Below are positions 1-20,530 of a DNA stretch of 64,000 nucleotides, one piece after another. The notes below the pieces were generated by a model. The model made no database searches, was not told the origin of the DNA, and was given only the letters and a program-made list of their open reading frames with translations. How positions within the stretch are numbered: position 1 is the stretch's first letter; each line of letters starts with the position of its first letter. Made by a program: the position numbers and the translations under genes. Origin of the DNA: Eledone cirrhosa (taxonomy: Eukaryota). The stretch lies in assembly GCA_964016885.1 (NCBI GenBank), contig OZ024740.1, forward strand, positions 406,534,001-406,598,000, read 5' to 3'.

Positions 1-3000
1 GGTCTCAAGCCACCTAGGAAGGTATGGGAAGATGAGACCGTGGTGTCAGCAGCAGAGGTCTCAAGCCACCTAGGAAGGTATGGGTAGATGAGACCGTGGT
101 GTCAGCAACAGAGGTCTCAAGCCACCTAGGAAGGTATGGGAAGATGAGACCGTGGTGTCAGCAGCAGAGGTCTCAAACCACATAGGAAGGTATGGGTAGA
201 TGAGACCGTGGTGTCAGCAGCAGAGGTCTCAAGCCACCTAGGAAGGTATGGTTAGATGAGACCGTGGTGTCAGCAACAGAGGTCTCAAGCCACCTAGGAA
301 GGTATGGGTAGATGAGACCGTGGTGTCAGCAACAGAGGTCTCAAGCTACCTAGGAAGGTATGGGTAGATGAGACCGTGGTGTCAGCAACAGAGGTCTCAA
401 GCTACCTAGGAAGGTATGGGTAGATGAGACCGTGGTGTCAGCAACAGAGGTCTCAAGCCACCTAGGAAGGTATGCGTAGATGAGACCGTGGTGTCAGCAA
501 CAGAGGTCTCAAGCTACCTAGGAAGGTATGGGTAGATGAGACCATGGTGTCAGCAACAGAGGTCTCAAGCCACCTAGGAAGGTATGGGTAGATGAGACCA
601 TGGTGTCAGCAACAGAGGTCTCAAGCCACATAGGAAGGTATGGGTAGATGAGACCGTGGTGTCAGCAACAGAGGTCTCAAGCCACCTAGGAAGGTATGGG
701 TAGATGAGACCGTGGTGTTAGTAACAGAGGTCTCAAGCTACCTAGGAAGGTATGGGTAGATGAGACCGTGGTGTCAGCAACAGAGGTCTCAAGCCACCTA
801 GGAAGGTATGCGTAGATGAGACCGTGGTGTCAGCAACAGAGGTCTCAAGCTACCTAGGAAGGTATGGGTAGATGAGACCGTGGTGTCAGCAACAGAGGTC
901 TCAAGCCACCTAGGAAGGTATGGGTAGATGAGACCGTGGTGTTAGTAGCAGAGGTCTCAAGCCACCTAGGAAGGTATGGGTAGATGAGACCGTGGTGTTA
1001 GTAGCAGAGGTCTCAAGCTACCTAGGAAGGTATGGGTAGATGAGACCGTGGTGTCAGCAGCAGAGGTCTCAAGCCACCTAGGAAGGTATGGGTAGATGAG
1101 ACCATGGTGTCAGCAACAGAGGTCTCAAGCCACCTAGGAAGGTATGGGTAGATGAGACCGTGGTGTCATCAACAGAGGTCTCAAGCCACCTAGGAAGGTA
1201 TGGGTAGATGAGACCATGGTGTCAGCAACAGAGGTCTCAAGCCACCTAGGAAGGTATGGGTAGATGAGACCGTGGTGTCAGCAACAGAGGTCTCAAGCCA
1301 CCTAGGAAGGTATGGGAAGATGAGACCATGGTGTCAGCAACAGAGGTCTCAAGCCACCTAGGAAGGTATGGGTAGATGAGACCGTGGTGTCAGTAGCAGA
1401 GGTCTCAAGCCACCTAGGAAGGTATGGGTAGATGAGACCGTGGTGTCAGCAGCAGAGGTCTCAAGCCACCTAGGAAGGTATGGGTAGATGAGACCATGGT
1501 GTCAGCAACAGAGGTCTCAAGCCACCTAGGAAGGTATGGGTAGATGAGACCGTGGTGTCAGCAACAGAGGTCTCAAGCTACCTAGGAAGGTATGGGAAGA
1601 TGAGACCGTGGTGTTAGTAGCAGAGGTCTCAAGCCACCTAGGAAGGTATGGGTAGATGAGACCGTGGTGTCAGCAACAGAGGTCTCAAGCCACCTAGGAA
1701 GGTATGGGAAGATGAGACCATGGTGTCAGCAACAGAGGTCTCAAGCCACCTAGGAAGGTATGGGAAGATGAGACCGTGGTGTCAGCAGCAGAGGTCTCAA
1801 GCCACCTAGGAAGGTATGGGAAGATGAGACCGTGGTGTCAGCAGCAGAGGTCTCAAGCCACCTAGGAAGGTATGGGTAGATGAGACCCTGGTGCCAGCAA
1901 CAGAGGTCTCAAGCCACCTAGGAAGGTATGGGAAGATGAGACCGTGGTGTCAGCAGCAGAGGTCTCAAGCCACCTAGAAGGTATGGGTAGATGAGACCGT
2001 GGTGTCAGCAACAGAGGTCTCAAGCCACCTAGGAAGGTATGGGTAGATGAGACCGTGGTGTCAGCAACAGAGGTCTCAAGCCACCTAGGAAGGTATGGGT
2101 AGATGAGACCGTGGTGTTAGTAGCAGAGGTCTCAAGCTACCTAGGAAGGTATGGGTAGATGAGACCGTGGTGTCAGTAGCAGTGGTCTCAAGCCACCTAG
2201 GAAGGTATGGGTAGATGAGACCATGGTGTCAGCAACAGAGGTCTCAAGCCACCTAGGAAGGTATGGGTAGATGAGACCGTGGTGTCAGCAGCAGAGGTCT
2301 CAAGCCACCTAGGAAGGTATGGGAAGATGAGACCGTTGTGTCAGCAACAGAGGTCTCAAGCCACCTAGGAAGGTATGGGAAGATGAGACCATGGTGTCAG
2401 CAACAGAGGTCTCAAGCCACCTAGGAAGGTATGGGTAGATGAGACCGTGGTGTCAGTAGCAGAGGTCTCAAGCCACCTAGGAAGGTATGCGTAGATGAGA
2501 CCGTGGTGTCAGCAACAGAGGTCTCAAGCCACCTAGGAAGGTATGGGAAGATGAGACCATGGTGTCAGCAACAGAGGTCTCAAGCCACCTAGGAAGGTAT
2601 GCGTAGATGAGACCGTGGTGTCAGCAACAGAGGTCTCAAGCCACCTAGGAAGGTATGGGAAGATGAGACCATGGTGTCAGCAACAGAGGTCTCAAGCCAC
2701 CTAGGAAGGTATGGGTAGATGAGACCATGGTGTCAGCAACAGAGGTCTCAAGCCACCTAGGAAGGTATGGGAAGATGAGACCGTGGTGTCAGCAACAGAG
2801 GTCTCAAGCCACCTAGGAAGGTATGGGAAGATGAGACCATGGTGTCAGCAACAGAGGTCTCAAGCCACCTAGGAAGGTATGGGTAGATGAGACCATGGTG
2901 TCAGCAACAGAGGTCTCAAGCCACCTAGGAAGGTATGGGTAGATGAGACCGTGGTGTCAGCAACAGAGGTCTCAAGCCACCTAGGAAGGTATGGGTAGAT

Positions 3001-4446
3001 GAGACCATGGTGTCAGCAACAGAGGTCTCAAGCCACCTAGGAAGGTATGGGTAGATGAGACCGTGGTGTCAGCAGCAGAGGTCTCAAGCCACCTAGGAAG
3101 GTATGGGTAGATGAGACCATGGTGTCAGCAACAGAGGTCTCAAGCCACCTAGGAAGGTATGGGTAGATGAGACCGTGGTGTCAGCAACAGAGGTCTCAAG
3201 CCACCTAGGAAGGTATGGGAAGATGAGACCATGGTGTCAGCAACAGAGGTCTCAAGCCACCTAGGAAGGTATGGGTAGATGAGACCGTGGTGTCAGCAAC
3301 AGAGGTCTCAAGCCACCTAGGAAGGTATGGGTAGATGAGACCGTGGTGTTAGTAGCAGAGGTCTCAAGCCACCTAGGAAGGTATGGGTAGATGAGACCAT
3401 GGTGTCAGCAACAGAGGTCTCAAGCCACCTAGGAAGGTATGGGTAGATGAGACCGTGGTGTCAGCAACAGAGGTCTCAAGCCACCTAGGAAGGTATGGGA
3501 AGATGAGACCATGGTGTCAGCAACAGAGGTCTCAAGCCACCTAGGAAGGTATGGGTAGATGAGACCGTGGTGTCAGCAACAGAGGTCTCAAGCCACCTAG
3601 GAAGGTATGGGAAGATGAGACCGTGGTGTTAGTAGCAGAGGTCTCAAGCCACCTAGGAAGGTATGGGTAGATGAGACCGTGGTGTCAGCAACAGAGGTCT
3701 CAAGCCACCTAGGAAGGTATGGGTAGATGAGACCATGGTGTCAGCAACAGAGGTCTCAAGCCACCTAGGAAGGTATGGGTAGATGAGACCGTGGTGTCAG
3801 CAGCAGAGGTCTCAAGCCACCTAGGAAGGTATGGGAAGATGAGACCGTGGTGTCAGTAGCAGAGGTCTCAAGCCACCTAGGAAGGTATGGGTAGATGAGA
3901 CCGTGGTGTCAGCAGCAGAGGTCTCAAGCCACCTAGGAAGGTATGGGTAGATGAGACCGTGGTGTCAGCAGCAGAGGTCTCAAGCCACCTAGGAAGGTAT
4001 GGGTAGATGAGACCGTGGTGTCAGCAACAGAGGTCTCAAGCCACCTAGGAAGGTATGGGAAGATGAGACCATGGTGTCAGCAACAGAGGTCTCAAGCCAC
4101 CTAGGAAGGTATGGGTAGATGAGACCGTGGTGTCAGCAACAGAGGTCTCAAGCCACCTAGGAAGGTATGGGAAGATGAGACCATGGTGTCAGCAACAGAG
4201 GTCTCAAGCCACCTAGGAAGGTATGGGTAGATGAGACCGTGGTGTCAGCAGCAGAGGTCTCAAGCCACCTAGGAAGGTATGGGAAGATGAGACCGTGGTG
4301 TCTGTAGCAGAGGTCTCAAGCCACCTAGGAAGGTATGGGAAGATGAGACCATGGTGTCAGCAACAGAGGTCTCAAGCCACCTAGGAAGGTATGGGTAGAT
4401 GAGACCGTGGTGTTAGTAGCAGAGGTCTCAAGCCACCTAGGAAGGT
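1..4446 (+). repeat. 56-bp tandem satellite (~79 copies, runs off window start); monomer GGTCTCAAGCCACCTAGGAAGGTATGGGTAGATGAGACCGTGGTGTCAGCAACAGA
   Basis: Monomer read directly. Phase recurs at 1, 841 and 1681 (15x56 apart). There is a single 1-bp deletion near 1977 and a few recurrent SNP variants. Confidence 0.98.
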
Positions 4447-5350
4447 TCAGTTTAATCATAAAACTGCCAGAGGCAATGGAAGAGGGAGCTGTATTGGGAC
4501 TCAGGCAGCAAAGGGACAAGATGGTATTTTGGAGGGGAAATGAAGTCCCAGAACTGGACACCAGCAAATTGGTGCGGCACTATCCAATTGTGGGGGTCGC
4601 TCTGAACAGCATGCAGCTATGTCTAGAGACAGGCAGATGGGGTCAGCTGGAAGACAGAGTGGGAGAAAGGACAATGGCCATGCTGTAGGAGATCGTGGAG
4701 AGAGTAAAGATGGAGGACCCAGTAAGAGGAAGCTGGTACCTACCCAAATCGGATAATGGGACCGTATGGTTTGATACTAGCAGCATGGCGCTAGAAGTCG
4801 TCTGGAAATAAGAGGTGTTGAGGTCGAAGATGCAGCTTGGCTCAAGAAAGAAGACTGCAACCGCATCAACATGGCCGAATTGGGCGCCGTGTTGAAGAGA
4901 GTGAATCACGCCCTGGAATGGAGGATGAGCACCAGAGAGATTCGTACTTATTCAGCCACTGTACTCGGATGGGTGAGATCAGTGCTTACCAGTGAGAGGA
5001 GGGTGCGAACGAGAGGGGCGGCGGCAGAAATGCTAATAAAGCGCCTCCTAGGAACTCTGGGAGAGTTGGCTGTTGGGTTCGGCCTGAAGTTGAGTGTGGT
5101 CTTTGTGCCCCCGTAGTAAAAGAGGGCAGACATCCTAATCAGGGTGAAGAAAGCCTGGCTAGAAGAGCCGGATGATGCGGAAAGGAGATAGCTACAGTGA
5201 CTTAGAGTTGAGGAGGTTACATGCCATGCATTATATGGGAAGTGGATAGGACCCTGTTCCTATCCAGGAAAGTCGACTCCAACGTTACCAGACAGAGTGT
5301 CCAGAAAGTGGTCGGGAGTTGCGACAGATGTCAGTCTATCAACCCTGCCC
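4395..5350 (+). pseudogene. pol: Gypsy/Ty3 LTR-retrotransposon pol remnant: RT C-terminus, RNase H, integrase HHCC zinc finger; frameshifted and truncated
   Basis: Translation across frames: VDETVVLVAEVSSHLGRF..KLPE..GAVLGL; HYPIVG; EDPVRGSW..VWFDTSSMAL; EDAAWLKK..INMAELGAVLKRVNHALEW (RNase H); LHAMHYMG..DRTLFL..SCDRCQSINPA (HHCC). Confidence 0.85.
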
Positions 5351-10785: not shown

Positions 10786-12517
10786 ATGAAGAAGATCAAC
10801 AACCTGGCTTCAAAATACCACAACTCATTTACTGATAAGGAAAGAAACTACATCACCAATTTTGAGCCGAAACCCAGCAACCTGTATGGCCTACCGAAAG
10901 TTCATAAGTCAAAAGAAATACAACTGGCAGTAAAAGAACAAAACAGTGAGTACATTAAATTATTACACCCAAAAGACTTAAAACTTAGACCTATTATAGC
11001 TGGTCCAACATGCCCCACCCACCGTCTAAGCAATTTTGTTGACATTATTTTGAAACCACTATGTATCACATACCCAGTTTCATCCGGGATGATATCGACT
11101 TCCTGTCCCATCTTCCCAAAACCACGGAAACGAATTCGCTTCTACTCAGTTTTGATGTGGTAAGCCTTTACACCAACATTACACATGATTTAGGAATAAA
11201 GGCGGTTAAATACTGGGTGGAAAAACATAGAGAAGTGATTCCCATTAGATTCACAGCGCCATTTATATTAGACGCAGTTAAACTTATTCTGGAAAACAAC
11301 ACTTTCTTCTTCAATGGAAAGAATTACATCCAAATTAGAGGCACAGCGATGGGAACGAAGTTTGCTCCCGTTTACGCGAACTCTGTAATGGGATACTTAG
11401 AACAACAACTCTACCAAGAAATAGAGGAAAAATATAGTACTGACTTTAGAAAGTACATTGAAAAATCTTGGAAGAGATACCTTGACGACTGTTTCATCAT
11501 CTGGACAGAATCTCTAGATACTCTGGATGAGTTCAATATCCTCCTGAATAACCTACACCCATCTCTCCAATTCACAAAAGAGATGAGTAGGACCAAATTA
11601 CCATTCCTAGATATAATGATAATCAAAAACGACACCACCATTACCACGGATATATATTATAAACACACAGACACCCATCAATATCTGAATTTTAAGTCGT
11701 GCCATCCACCTCATACAAAACGCAACATCCCATACTGCCTAGCCAGAAGAATTTGTACCATTGTTGAAGATACGAATACCAGGTACAAACGCCTAACAGA
11801 ACTAAGAGAATTTTTGCTCAAACAAAAATACCCATCTCTACTTATAGAAAATGGCATACAGCGGGCTATAAAAATACCTATACAACAACTTAGAACAACC
11901 CAAGGAAGAAGAAACCAAGAACTGGTCATACCATTTATAATGACACACAACCCATGTCACCAGAATATCTTCAACACTACCAAAGCAAACCTACCGATCA
12001 TTGCTCAAAGTAATGAATTAAAAGGCTTAATCACAGATCGATCTTTGACTCTTAGTAAAAGACAGCCAAAAAATTTGAAGCAATTACTAACAAAAGCAAA
12101 GTTAACAACAAAGACCAATCATTCACTGTATCTAAATGCAATGATAGTCGATGCGGCACATGTCAATCCATACACGCCGGTCAATATATGAAAACAAAAA
12201 CTGGAAAAATATTCCCAAATGCAAATATGAACTGCAAAAGCAGAAATCTAATTTACTGCATTAAATGCCTGAATTGTGAAGAACTATATGTCGGTCAAAC
12301 TGGAAATGCACTATCGGAACGTGCACGGGTACACCGTCAACAAATCAGAGACCCAAATGTCCGTCAGATACCCCTAAGCGGCCACCTGGCAACATGTGGT
12401 CAGGGAATATTTATAATATTCCCATTCTACAAATTACACAGCCCAAGTGAAATCAAGAGAAAAATCAAAGAAAAGAATTTTATTGATAAATTCAAACCCA
12501 AGCTAAACGAACAATAA
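10786..12517 (+). pseudogene. PLE reverse transcriptase + GIY-YIG endonuclease; two frameshifts (~11065, ~12115)
   Basis: RT motifs LYGLPKVHK, LRPII, FDVVSLYTNI, GTAMG, RYLDD. Thumb FLDI..YYKHTDTHQYL..SCHP. Linker KCNDSRCGTCQ is in frame with NLIYCIKCLNCEELYVGQTG..R..H (GIY-YIG). Confidence 0.93.
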
Positions 12518-14322: not shown

Positions 14323-14521
14323 AGAGATAGACATAGATATAGAGAGGGGGATTGGAAAATGTTCCTTGTAGTAGCTATACAGAGGGGAAGAGTTTGGCGT
14401 TAATTGATATAGAGAGGAGGATTGGAAGAGAGTTCCATGTAGTAGATATACTGAGGGAGAGAGTTTGGCGTTAATTGATATAAAGAGAGGGGTTGGAAGA
14501 GAGTTCCGTGTAGTAGATATA
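14323..14521 (+). repeat. Minisatellite (~39+32-bp alternating units starting GATATAGAGAGGGG), left part
   Basis: GATATAGAGAGGGGGATTGGAAGAGAGTTCCGTGTAGTA alternates with GATATAGAGAGGGGGAGAGTTTGGCGTTAATT. The repeat continues at 20262-20530. Confidence 0.8.
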
Positions 14522-14789: not shown

Positions 14790-17700
14790 CCATTCACTCG
14801 GGCCATTCTCACTACTTTCACCCACCTTTCATAAAACTTGCTGGGGTAGAGCACCTCTCTCTCCATTCTGATCCTTCTTCTAAAGTGGAAAAAAAGACCA
14901 GTTGTTGGCCAGAGAGAAAGGTGTCTGACCTCAGCCCTTTCAACCTTGTCCACCATACAACTTCTTTCGCCATAGCTATCACACAGAGGAAAACCGCCTC
15001 TCCTTCGTTTTTGAAAGGGGGAGGCGGTTTGATCGTGACAATGTTCTCGGTGGTCAACCGGATTGGTCCCACCCGCGACAGTAGTCGTTCCACATAGCCC
15101 CACAGGTCAGCAACGCCCGGGCAGTGTACGAATGCGTGTGCGACGGTTTCCTCGTCACGCACGCATCTCGGACAGATCTTCTTCGAGGGGTCCCTACCCG
15201 GGCGCCCGTGTCTGTAGAGATTGTCCCGAACGGGTAGAGATCCTCGGTAACATTGCCAAGCCAGGGACTTTTGGAAGTTGTCCATCGGTCCCGGGCCAAA
15301 CGTCCTACCGAACAGACTGGCCAGCTCATCTTCCTTCATGCTCAGAGCCTCTCCGAGAGCGTCATCGCACTTACTGCGCACCAACCCTCTATAGAATGTT
15401 GAGGTTGAGTCTCCACTGATTGCCGGATCCGCTTGCCAGAGGGCCGTGAGCGCCTGGGCACATTCAATGTGCCAGTCGTCCACTTTTCTCGGTCTTTGCT
15501 TGACCCAGGATTGCAGCTCGGTGAGTGAGACGAGTCTCGGAAAGGCTCGCCTCACAAAAAGGGCCCACACCGGCTGACCGGGGAGGAATACCTGGAGGTT
15601 CCGTAGCCTTAATGCGTGTCTACGCATCGTCAGCCACGGTATCCCCAGCCCTCCGTTCGAAGGGTGTTGACAGCAGATGGATCTTCTCACCAAAAGGAGC
15701 CCGCTTCTCCCAAAGAAATCGGAAGAGCACGCGCTCCATTTTGGCGAGTGTTTTCTCTGGGCAAGGCACGACGGTCAGGCGGTAGTAGATGACGGACGCT
15801 ATATAAGCGTTCGCCACCTCCGCTCGACCTTTCAGGGATAGTTTGCACTCGGCCCACTTCTGGGCAAGTGCAAACACCTTGCCCGTTACCTCGTCCCAGT
15901 TTTTCTCCACCTGGAGGTCCTGTCCGAATCAGACCCCGAGCAGCTTCACCGGTCCCTCCGTCCAGCGTCCGACGATGCCGTCGGAGGGCATCGGTTTTCC
16001 CCTCCACGTTCCGAGCTGCAAACCGACGGACTTGTCCCGGTTCAGCTTGGCTCCTGTGAACCTTTCATATTCCTCCAGTAAGGTGCCGATCTGCCCGATT
16101 TCCGAGGCGCACGACACCATTACTGTCACGTCATCGGCGTAGGCCGACACCGCTTTCCGCAATCCCGGTTCCAAGGGGATGCCCTGCAACAGCTCCAGCT
16201 TCCGCAGTAGTGGCTCGAGAGCCAGTACATACAGGAGGGAGGAGAGAGGGCATCCCTGTCGGATGGATCGCGTGATTTGGAACGGCTTCGAGCAGGTGTT
16301 GCTGCTGTGCATTGCAGCAATCCAGCCCCTGAAAACGGGTCCGAAGCCTGCCGCCGCGAGCACCGCATCTAGGTACCGATGGTCAACCTTATCGAACGCC
16401 TTAGATTGATCCAAGTTGATCAGGACCCCACCAAAGCCGGGTTCGTTCCCTACCCTCTCTAGGATGTATCGCATGAGGTGGAGGTTGTCGTGTATGGACC
16501 TGGACGGGATTGCGCATGTCTGCGCTTCTCCCACTATGTTCCCGACGACAAGCGCCAACCTCTTCGCTAACACCTTGGCCAAAATCTTTAACTCTGTGTT
16601 TAGCAGAGTTATGGGCCTGAAGTTATCTATGTCATCCCCCTTGTTCTCGTCCTTCCTCACCAGAACTTGGTCACAGAACTGGGAATTCTCCCGTTCTGTT
16701 GCCAGTTGCAGTAGACCGCCTCGAGGAGACCGGAGAACAAGCCCGGCATCGCTACATAAAGTTCGTATGGTAGACCATCGAGACCCGGAGATTTGCGTTT
16801 GCCGCATTGGCTCAGCGCTTCCCCTATTTCAGCGGCTGAAATCGGCCTCTCGCAGGACTTCGCCTCCCCGTCCGAGAGCCGCGCCAGACCGTCGAGGTAT
16901 GGACCGAAATCCATGGCCCCACCCGGCCCTCCGCCCCTCCCGAACAGTCGTGCAAAGCGCCGTTGAAAGGCCGCGCTCATCCGCTCAGGTTCAAGGATCA
17001 CGCGTCCATCCTGGTCCTTCAAAGACGGAATCGTGGACTTGTTTCCACTTTTTGCCTCTGTTGCTCGGGCCCAGCTAACAGCTTTGGCTCCCTCGTTACC
17101 CAGAGCACGTATTTTACTCCTGACAACGCAGCCCTCGTGCTTCGCATCAAAGAACAGGTCTAGGGCCGTTCTTGACGCCAGCACGCCGGCCACGTTGCCA
17201 CTCCTAATCGCCTCTTCTACTCTATTTGTTAATTCCCTTTCAGTTCTATTCCTATCAGATGCTAATTCCCGACTAAAACCTATCGATTATATTCTAATTT
17301 CTCTCTTGAGAGAGCCCCACCACCTGCTGTTGACAATTGCCCCCGTCAAACGCTGCTTAACTAGTGTGCTAATCCGCTTACTGTAAGCTTTGTTTGTCGG
17401 TAAAGACAAGTTTAGCTTCCAGTAACCCGGTCCCTGTCTATGAGTTCTATCAAGGTTGACCACTCCGATCACCAACTTGTGATCCGAATAGGCAACCATG
17501 AACATTCGTGGACAGCTTAATATGTCCCTATCCTTATTTCTAACTAAGAACCTATCTAGGTACGACCTAGATGTTCCGCTGCGATTAGTTCACGTCCACA
17601 GTGGCACAGTCGGAAAATCTAGTCGATATCTATCGGCCAGATCAAATCGGCCGATTAATCGTTTGAGACTGTTACACCCCTCTATCGGGGCATGCCCCTA

Positions 17701-18161
17701 CATAGTCCCAACGTGCATCCAGGATACCATTCCAGTCCCCCACTAAAAGCAAGGAGCGAGACGTTCCCAGGAAATTCTCCAGGCGTCGGAAGAAGTCCGG
17801 TCGCGGTGTCCCAGATGGGGCATACGCTGCCACCAGCCTGAAAGCTCCACCTTCACCACTGCCGACGTCTAAAACCACCAGTCGACCCTCCGGGTCCAGG
17901 TGTACCTTCTGTGTGGCAAGACCCAGGTATTTTCGCAGCAGAACAACAACCCCACCCCCACCCCTTGGCTGACAGAGGGATGGATGCGTAGATCTCAAAG
18001 TCGTCGAAGATGGGGGCCAGTTGGCGCTCGCTGCTGATCCTGGACTCGCAAATAACCATTACATCCACTCTGTGCGACCTGGGGTCATTTAAGAGTTTGC
18101 CCTGTTTCCAGGACATCCCCAGGCCACGTGCAGTCACACATCCAACTCTTATATTGGCCAT
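14790..18161 (-). pseudogene. Tx1 ORF2: AP endonuclease, reverse transcriptase, C-terminal zinc finger; multiple frameshifts
   Basis: APE: ARGL..VICESR, YAP, GDWN, SDH, GYWKLN. RT: KSPGLDGLPYELY, FRPITLLNTELKILAK, LDQSKAFDKVDH, RQGCPLS, YADD. Zinc finger: CPRC..ETVAHAFVHC. Confidence 0.93.
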
Positions 18162-20261: not shown

Positions 20262-20530
20262 GGTAATTGATATAGAGAGGGTCATTGGAAGAAAGTCCCG
20301 TGTTGTAGATATAGAGAGGGGGATTGGGAGAGTGTATTGTATATTTGATATAGAGAGGGGGAGAGATTGATGTAGAGATTGTAGAGCGGGGTATTGGAAG
20401 AGATTTCCGTGCATTAGATATAGAGAGGGGGGGGGGGGAGTTTGGTGTTAATTGATATAGAGAGAGGGATTGGAAGAGAGTACCGTGTAGTAGATATAGA
20501 GAGGGGGAGAGTTTGGTGGTTGTAGATATA
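20262..20530 (+). repeat. Minisatellite, right part (same family as 14323-14521)
   Basis: Repeated GATATAGAGAGGGG units. Confidence 0.8.

Follow-up and report, generated by a model that had tools for sequence, protein, structure and literature searches.

A 56-bp minisatellite derived from the reverse transcriptase sequence of a broken LTR-retroelement copy in Eledone cirrhosa, and its probable passage to a second copy by gene conversion

The 64,000-nucleotide stretch of Eledone cirrhosa DNA analysed here (the window throughout; contig OZ024740.1, called C1 below, of the 3.0-Gb assembly GCA_964016885.1, starting at C1:406,534,001) opens with a tandem array of a 56-bp unit, followed by the remnant of a long terminal repeat (LTR) retroelement pol gene. 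Tandem Repeats Finder reported a period of 56 and 79.4 copies with 95% matches over window positions 1-4446 (+); an earlier note, made from the letters alone, had the period and the copy number right but placed the end of the array at 4480 rather than 4446. Within the window, 77 of the 78 intervals between unit starts measure 56 nt and one measures 55 nt. This is the 3' two-thirds of the array (79.4 of 120 units), which extends 2,270 bp (40.5 units) upstream of the window start and begins right after codons for YIDDIL. The whole array comprises 120 unit starts over 6.7 kb, and its 119 intervals are 56 nt long except for one of 57 and one of 55. There are 31 distinct units with a mean pairwise difference of 4.1%, most of which translate as VDET(V/M)VSA(T/A)EVSSHLGRY. 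Every one of the six reading frames has 76-85 stops over the array, which is thus non-coding, as had been supposed. In short-read contigs the head-to-tail junction has a depth of 270-450, against ~5-12 for unique pieces, so the array is no assembly artefact; the runs possibly come from the assembly's own sample. With units in the range of ~10-100 bp arranged head-to-tail over a few kb, the array has the form of a minisatellite.

Both ends of the array are still joined to reverse transcriptase (RT) sequence. The DNA directly 5' of the first unit encodes ...TNSYIDDIL, the kind of 5' RT sequence ending in YIDDIL that the earlier note had suggested looking for. At the other end, the last unit (4395..4446, +, 52 nt) reads VDETVVLVAEVSSHLGR, and the same frame continues as FSLIIKLPEAMEEGAVLGL in the pol remnant; the letters that follow this unit are of the family type, unlike those at the internal junctions. 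The in-frame connection of the last unit and the amplification in place of the segment directly after the YxDD motif, both proposed in that note, are thereby borne out. The RT remnant continues over 4447..4690 (+), the right arm of an inferred conversion tract with 96.5-98% identity to a 7-unit copy described below. It is followed at 4691..5349 (+) by a distal pol remnant holding the end of the DUF7047/thumb region, RNase H and the start of the integrase zinc finger, as assigned through relatives; this distal part carries stops and frame breaks, ends at ~5350 and has no special kinship to the 7-unit copy.

The parent is a broken fragment of ~1.1 kb that covers pol residues 319-696 of 970. Its sole upstream remainder is the 125-bp RT flank 5' of the array, which is 67% identical to residues 319-373 of an intact homologous pol (E 1e-16). 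The 3' side covers residues 361-696, is spread over three frames and has three stops; within it, window positions 4395-4685 match residues 361-471 of one intact homologue at 45% (E 5e-24), and the two flanks of the array are collinear with pol (residues 319-373 and 361-510). No other part of this copy, a displaced 5' half included, was found in the 20 kb upstream. There is also no family LTR beside it: LTR probes from two other copies matched nothing but a separate copy 21 kb upstream, whose piece of integrase and LTR lies on the opposite strand and was rejected as a part of the window copy. To speak of a parent pol gene, as had been done, is therefore too generous. A Pfam scan of the window's own two pol frames matched no family in either, and the domains of the remnant were assigned through relatives.

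Within the RT, the 56-bp unit starts two codons after the aspartates of YIDD. In the structure predicted for one homologue (mean pLDDT 77.5), it takes in the last part of the strand that follows YIDD, along with the helix after it, so that an origin in the catalytic domain, as first described, is better put as an origin just past the catalytic residues. A strict pattern for this segment, YxDD..V..L..[FYH]GL..K, is matched by 87 of 120 intact pol homologues, and the segment is thus present upstream of KxPE in intact relatives; its absence there would have told against the proposed origin. The source of the unit is the stretch of RT that directly follows YIDD in a broken LTR-retroelement copy.

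The family to which this copy belongs consists of compact LTR elements of ~4.1-4.2 kb, with at least 710 long homologues, the named ones from an octopod and crustaceans. Family copies and long homologues show the Pfam order protease, RT, DUF7047, RNase H, integrase; DUF7047 maps to the helical region between the RT palm and RNase H, and ESM Atlas, Protein Data Bank (PDB) sequence and PDB fold searches agree on an RT-RNase H-integrase protein. Three LTR pairs of full-length copies are ~90% alike and end in TG..CA. Target duplications of 5 bp flank two copies (L027 and L031), none was recognised at a third (L030), and a fourth (L026) has only a partial LTR pair. The best integrase relatives are 92% alike, and together with the LTR pairs this makes the family look old, with no young target seen. 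YIDD occurs in 83 of 120 intact homologues, and a CX2CX4HX4C knuckle in nine gag-bearing proteins.

The element order, the TG..CA LTRs, the 5-bp target duplication, the CX2CX4HX4C knuckle and the YxDD motif are all shared with Ty3/Gypsy elements (Metaviridae), the order being common to Ty3/Gypsy, BEL, Troyka and retroviruses alike. The family differs from Ty3/Gypsy in three respects. None of 41 homologues matches the Pfam RT_RNaseH models, while RVT_3 and DUF7047 match in all 41; a GPY/F integrase motif was found in none of 120 homologues with a simple pattern over the last 200 residues; and the best solved relatives by sequence and fold are retroviral proteins, a ranking that does not classify. 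The GPF/Y motif is itself common, not universal, in Ty3/Gypsy integrases (PMC12440569; here and below, papers are cited for the parts available to us), and the available part of PMC6238403 did not place the family. Troyka/Kuafuorterviruses have CG..CG termini, a 3-bp target duplication, xADD and a CX2CX8-10HX4C knuckle (PMC12440569, PMC11673190). They were rejected as the parent on the TG..CA termini, the 5-bp duplication, YIDD and the canonical knuckle, the Troyka-type knuckle being found in none of the gag-bearing proteins. The label Gypsy used in the earlier note is thus supported for structure but not for phylogenetic membership in Metaviridae; judged by its sequence features, the parent fits an old LTR-retroelement family that is structurally Gypsy-like.

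To see how the unit may have arisen, we compared 80 distinct family loci (after removal of 4 of 56 as duplicates and 19 of 99 for overlap or near-identity). They come from searches that scored the top 40 of 500-900 candidates, a similarity ranking that under-samples interrupted family copies. In all 67 relatives that hold it, the RT segment is single, with no tandem second copy in any. Between the window unit and relatives the median difference is 8 in 52 nt. A microhomology of 2-3 nt exists at the observed register in 4 of the 5 relatives tested; nearby there are 50-58 other registers with microhomology of at least 3 nt, and the observed one is no better. A small founding tandem duplication at this 2-3-nt microhomology is likely, and its setting may have been the family's old copying burst or a single genomic copy. 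Seventeen consecutive units recur with a period of 9, the maximum in 300 shuffles being 6, and this points to a recent block duplication; such repeated blocks of unit variants suggest that the array has likely grown by continuing slippage and unequal exchange. The window unit is predicted to fold into a hairpin of -10.7 kcal/mol (z -3.4), stronger than in 44 of 45 relatives (mean -6.9), which perhaps helped slippage or the large expansion. The hairpin is weak in the units of a third array discussed below, however, and is not a supported general cause.

Arrays of the unit are found at three loci. A search of the assembly at the DNA level gave three candidate array regions. A strict pattern for the head-to-tail junction gave 110 matches across the whole assembly, with 6 at C1:405.53 Mb and at least 94 in the window array among the matches listed. 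A looser pattern gave 88, all of them at the 120-unit window array, a 7-unit array 1.0 Mb upstream on C1 and a 5-unit array at C14:8.64 Mb, on another chromosome-scale contig; both searches miss diverged junctions. All three arrays lie inside parent copies, where a satellite family would consist of very long or many arrays free of the parent element, and the term satellite originally chosen for the array gives way to minisatellite.

The three arrays have the same register and all carry A at unit position 53. Among the 45 relatives in which the junction base could be counted (22 of 67 were dropped for indels or mismatched anchor bases), this position is T in 44 and A in one. Among the 88 matches none carries the common T, although the pattern would have accepted it; all have A. 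Since register and junction base are common to the three loci, and that base is rare in relatives, we trace them to one founding duplication, and rough arithmetic on the register (~55) and the 1-in-45 base makes a single origin of all three arrays quite likely. The duplication would have reached C14 either while the family was multiplying, inside a defective element, or through an older short conversion.

Several observations on the C14 copy weigh against a single origin. Its flanks have no rare state in common with the C1 pair over 119 columns on the upstream side and 0-1 over 111 on the downstream side, values that stay within the null range. In each of the five units, variants private to C14 are fixed at the two edges, a pattern in keeping with an independent duplication. 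A clade of the three copies is absent from the trees, though a constraint to form it is not rejected either (p-AU 0.30 and 0.51). The 56-bp duplication could accordingly have arisen independently at C14 and on C1 from a predisposed RT segment, with only the C1 pair linked by conversion. The unit hairpin, hotspots reported within elements (PMC3389668) and the C14 terminal unit, the genome's sole terminal of the A type beside 17 of the T type, would also agree with such recurrence. An A-bearing sub-lineage as the source of the junction base was rejected, only the C14 terminal having matched. We nevertheless consider recurrence improbable. A recurrent event would be expected to leave common-T junctions too, and none of the 88 matches has one; at the observed register the microhomology is only 2-3 nt, which 50-58 registers equal or surpass; and in three relatives the segment ranks, by its folding, no higher than within the top 6-19% of windows. 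Descent of the three arrays from a single duplication thus stays the preferred reading.

The two C1 arrays are more closely connected. The copies that carry them are 94.2% identical over 120 nt upstream of the array and 98.1% and 96.5% identical over 240 nt downstream, and within 4447..4690 they have two private deletions and a stop codon in common. Beyond window position 4690 they match in only 62-83 of 100 columns, though homology continues. Shared rare states occur at 18 of 352 columns inside this tract but at 1 of 479 beyond it, where the two copies carry 34 and 36 private rare states. Trees built from the tract join the C1 copies as sisters with support of 99/94 and 100/99 (the second with a stem of 0.14 and tips of 0.01), whereas in the distal tree they are not sisters and have tips of 0.12 and 0.14. 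The outer flanks are not collinear and have only dispersed repeats in common. Near-identity is thus bounded, the copies are diverged outside it and the flanks are not duplicated, as in a conversion tract. Because the near-identity is confined to ~370 bp of flank and the array, and the loci are unrelated beyond, we conclude that the C1 pair was very probably linked by ectopic gene conversion long after insertion. Two results run the other way: the tract is patchy (94% upstream against 98% downstream), and the formal test does not reject a distal tree constrained to unite the C1 pair (p-AU 0.28).

Deletions private to the 7-unit copy, of 13 bp and 9 bp, lie at the edges of the tract and make that copy the likelier acceptor. 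Contigs from three runs of one sample span the right edge in this copy without a difference; in a second sample that edge is represented by 8 molecules, with 16 of 17 reads at least 99% alike and all 8 molecules starting at one site. It is fairly probable that the window copy was the donor, a polarity read from these edges rather than from an outgroup locus, and the window copy would then have passed its array to a paralogue 1.0 Mb away after both had inserted. It is very unlikely that the link came about through mis-assembly, a segmental duplication or an element that retrotransposed with the array inside it: the arrays do lie on the same strand of the same contig only 1.0 Mb apart, and repeats carried inside mobilised LTR elements are known (LTR12, PMC3389668), but the near-identity ends abruptly at 4690 while homology goes on, inactivating changes lie inside the shared tract, the flanks lack collinearity (the ground on which a segmental duplication of these loci was rejected), and short-read contigs bridge the edge at both C1 loci without differences. 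Starting from ectopic conversion between the C1 copies, a bolder and rather doubtful extension is that the array of one dead copy behaves like a homing cassette, spreading by repeated ectopic conversion across megabases and chromosomes with several hundred paralogues as landing sites. If so, the three loci would be the earliest readable stage in the passage from a minisatellite to a multi-locus satellite, with donor, acceptor and edges visible.

As to function, the array is likely the outcome of repeat turnover without any. That it is a transcribed source of piRNAs or siRNAs against the parent family, as the earlier note suggested, or a selected chromatin element, seems to us hardly probable: 120 near-identical units, with their stable hairpin fold, would offer abundant substrate, and transcription of repeats derived from retrotransposons does occur (PMC3648361), but the copy has no LTR promoter beside it, the family looks old with no young member seen (LTR pairs ~90%, integrase relatives 92%), the unit's median difference from relatives amounts to 8 of 52 nt, and similar arrays occur elsewhere in pol and its flanks. 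Taken together, a 120-unit non-coding minisatellite that began as a microhomology duplication, grew by slippage, passed to a C1 paralogue by conversion and has no function, each step being likely, is the account we hold to be probable overall.

Arrays in dead pol sequence are not peculiar to the 56-bp unit. Over the 80 family loci, 3 arrays lie inside 146.5 kb of pol-homologous DNA (that of C14 and two unrelated ones) and 5 in 128.4 kb of other DNA; one of the pol arrays fell outside by the coverage rule of the script and was counted inside since it lies between pol matches. The two unrelated arrays sit inside the integrase sequence of other family copies, one of 65 bp x 15 (L007:2414-3395) and one of 30 bp x 15.4 (L012:2614-3075), both with further arrays in their flanks. 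Such arrays are about as frequent as in neighbouring DNA, and a coding origin needs no special explanation here; the view that it is unusual also sits poorly with the repeats from open reading frames (ORFs) reviewed in PMC9659126. A younger long interspersed nuclear element (LINE) family with no arrays in 29 loci is a point on the other side.

The surroundings of the arrays hold further repeats and elements. A separate satellite with related periods of 29, 43 and 72 bp occupies window positions 30284-64000 and runs on to ~C1:406,724,000; all 98 exact matches of a 43-nt probe for it fall within ~160 kb at one place. Two short arrays in the window, at 14336-14521 (period 71) and 20269-20508 (period 39), have the same unit-start sequence. 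A LINE remnant with endonuclease, RT and zf-RVT lies at 14818-18058 (-) and belongs to a family whose candidates number in the thousands and whose relatives are as much as 95% alike, and a second LINE RT piece lies at 11043-12191 (+). Upstream of the window, a 422-bp unit is repeated three times at 100% (L022:7426-8697). At L022:4490-6361 (-), a 624-aa open frame has RT and GIY-YIG matches, and from its architecture we take it to be Penelope-like. About 9 kb from the C14 copy there is a 48-bp array of at least 26.7 units (L164:8718-10000). On C3 (323.85-323.86 Mb; L005/L006), an element copy with its flanks is present twice, 10.5 kb apart and with identical aligned parts, which is either a recent tandem duplication or an assembly duplicate.

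Any region of a mobile element, ORFs included, can seed tandem repeats (PMC9659126), a model of slippage followed by amplification has been described (PMC6947457), and 7,276 human tandem repeats are element-derived (PMC3389668). We found no array from the RT YxDD segment in the open literature, although the 7,276-row table of PMC3389668 could hold cases. The human minisatellites of this kind (Ahmed and Liang 2012, PMC3389668) likewise arose by in-place amplification of part of an inserted element, for which any region can serve; as here, most lack a flanking direct repeat of 5-20 bp and some are at several loci. The present array differs from them in stemming from the RT core of an LTR element and in its 120 units, the Alu-derived ones averaging ~2.3-2.4. 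ORF-derived satellites share the coding origin, namely chicken HinfI (CR1 ORF2), PROsat (L1 ORF2), rye E3900 (gag) and Chenopodium CficCl-61-40 (Tnp2) (Zattera and Bruschi 2022, PMC9659126). They are listed there as satellite DNAs with partial similarity to an element, unlike the three-locus array described here, which is embedded at both ends in the parent frame beside YxDD.

The closest likeness in mechanism is to maize CRM1TR and CRM4TR (Sharma et al. 2013, PMC3648361), which also derive wholly from LTR retrotransposons and occupy two neighbouring loci with locus-specific variants; for CRM1TR, the second locus is 1.4 Mb away and intrachromosomal conversion into another copy was proposed. 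The maize monomers are long, come from LTR and UTR sequence and are (peri)centromeric, whereas here the monomer is coding sequence of 56 bp, the edges of the tract are readable and a third locus lies on another contig. The start of a repeat and its move to a second locus are usually inferred once the traces are gone. In the present case these traces survive in the parent sequence, both junctions, dozens of relatives with a single copy of the segment and the edges of one transfer, and the readable tract makes conversion-driven spread testable. The array is a well-preserved retroelement-derived minisatellite of a known kind, and what is new in it is the readable conversion tract together with the third locus.

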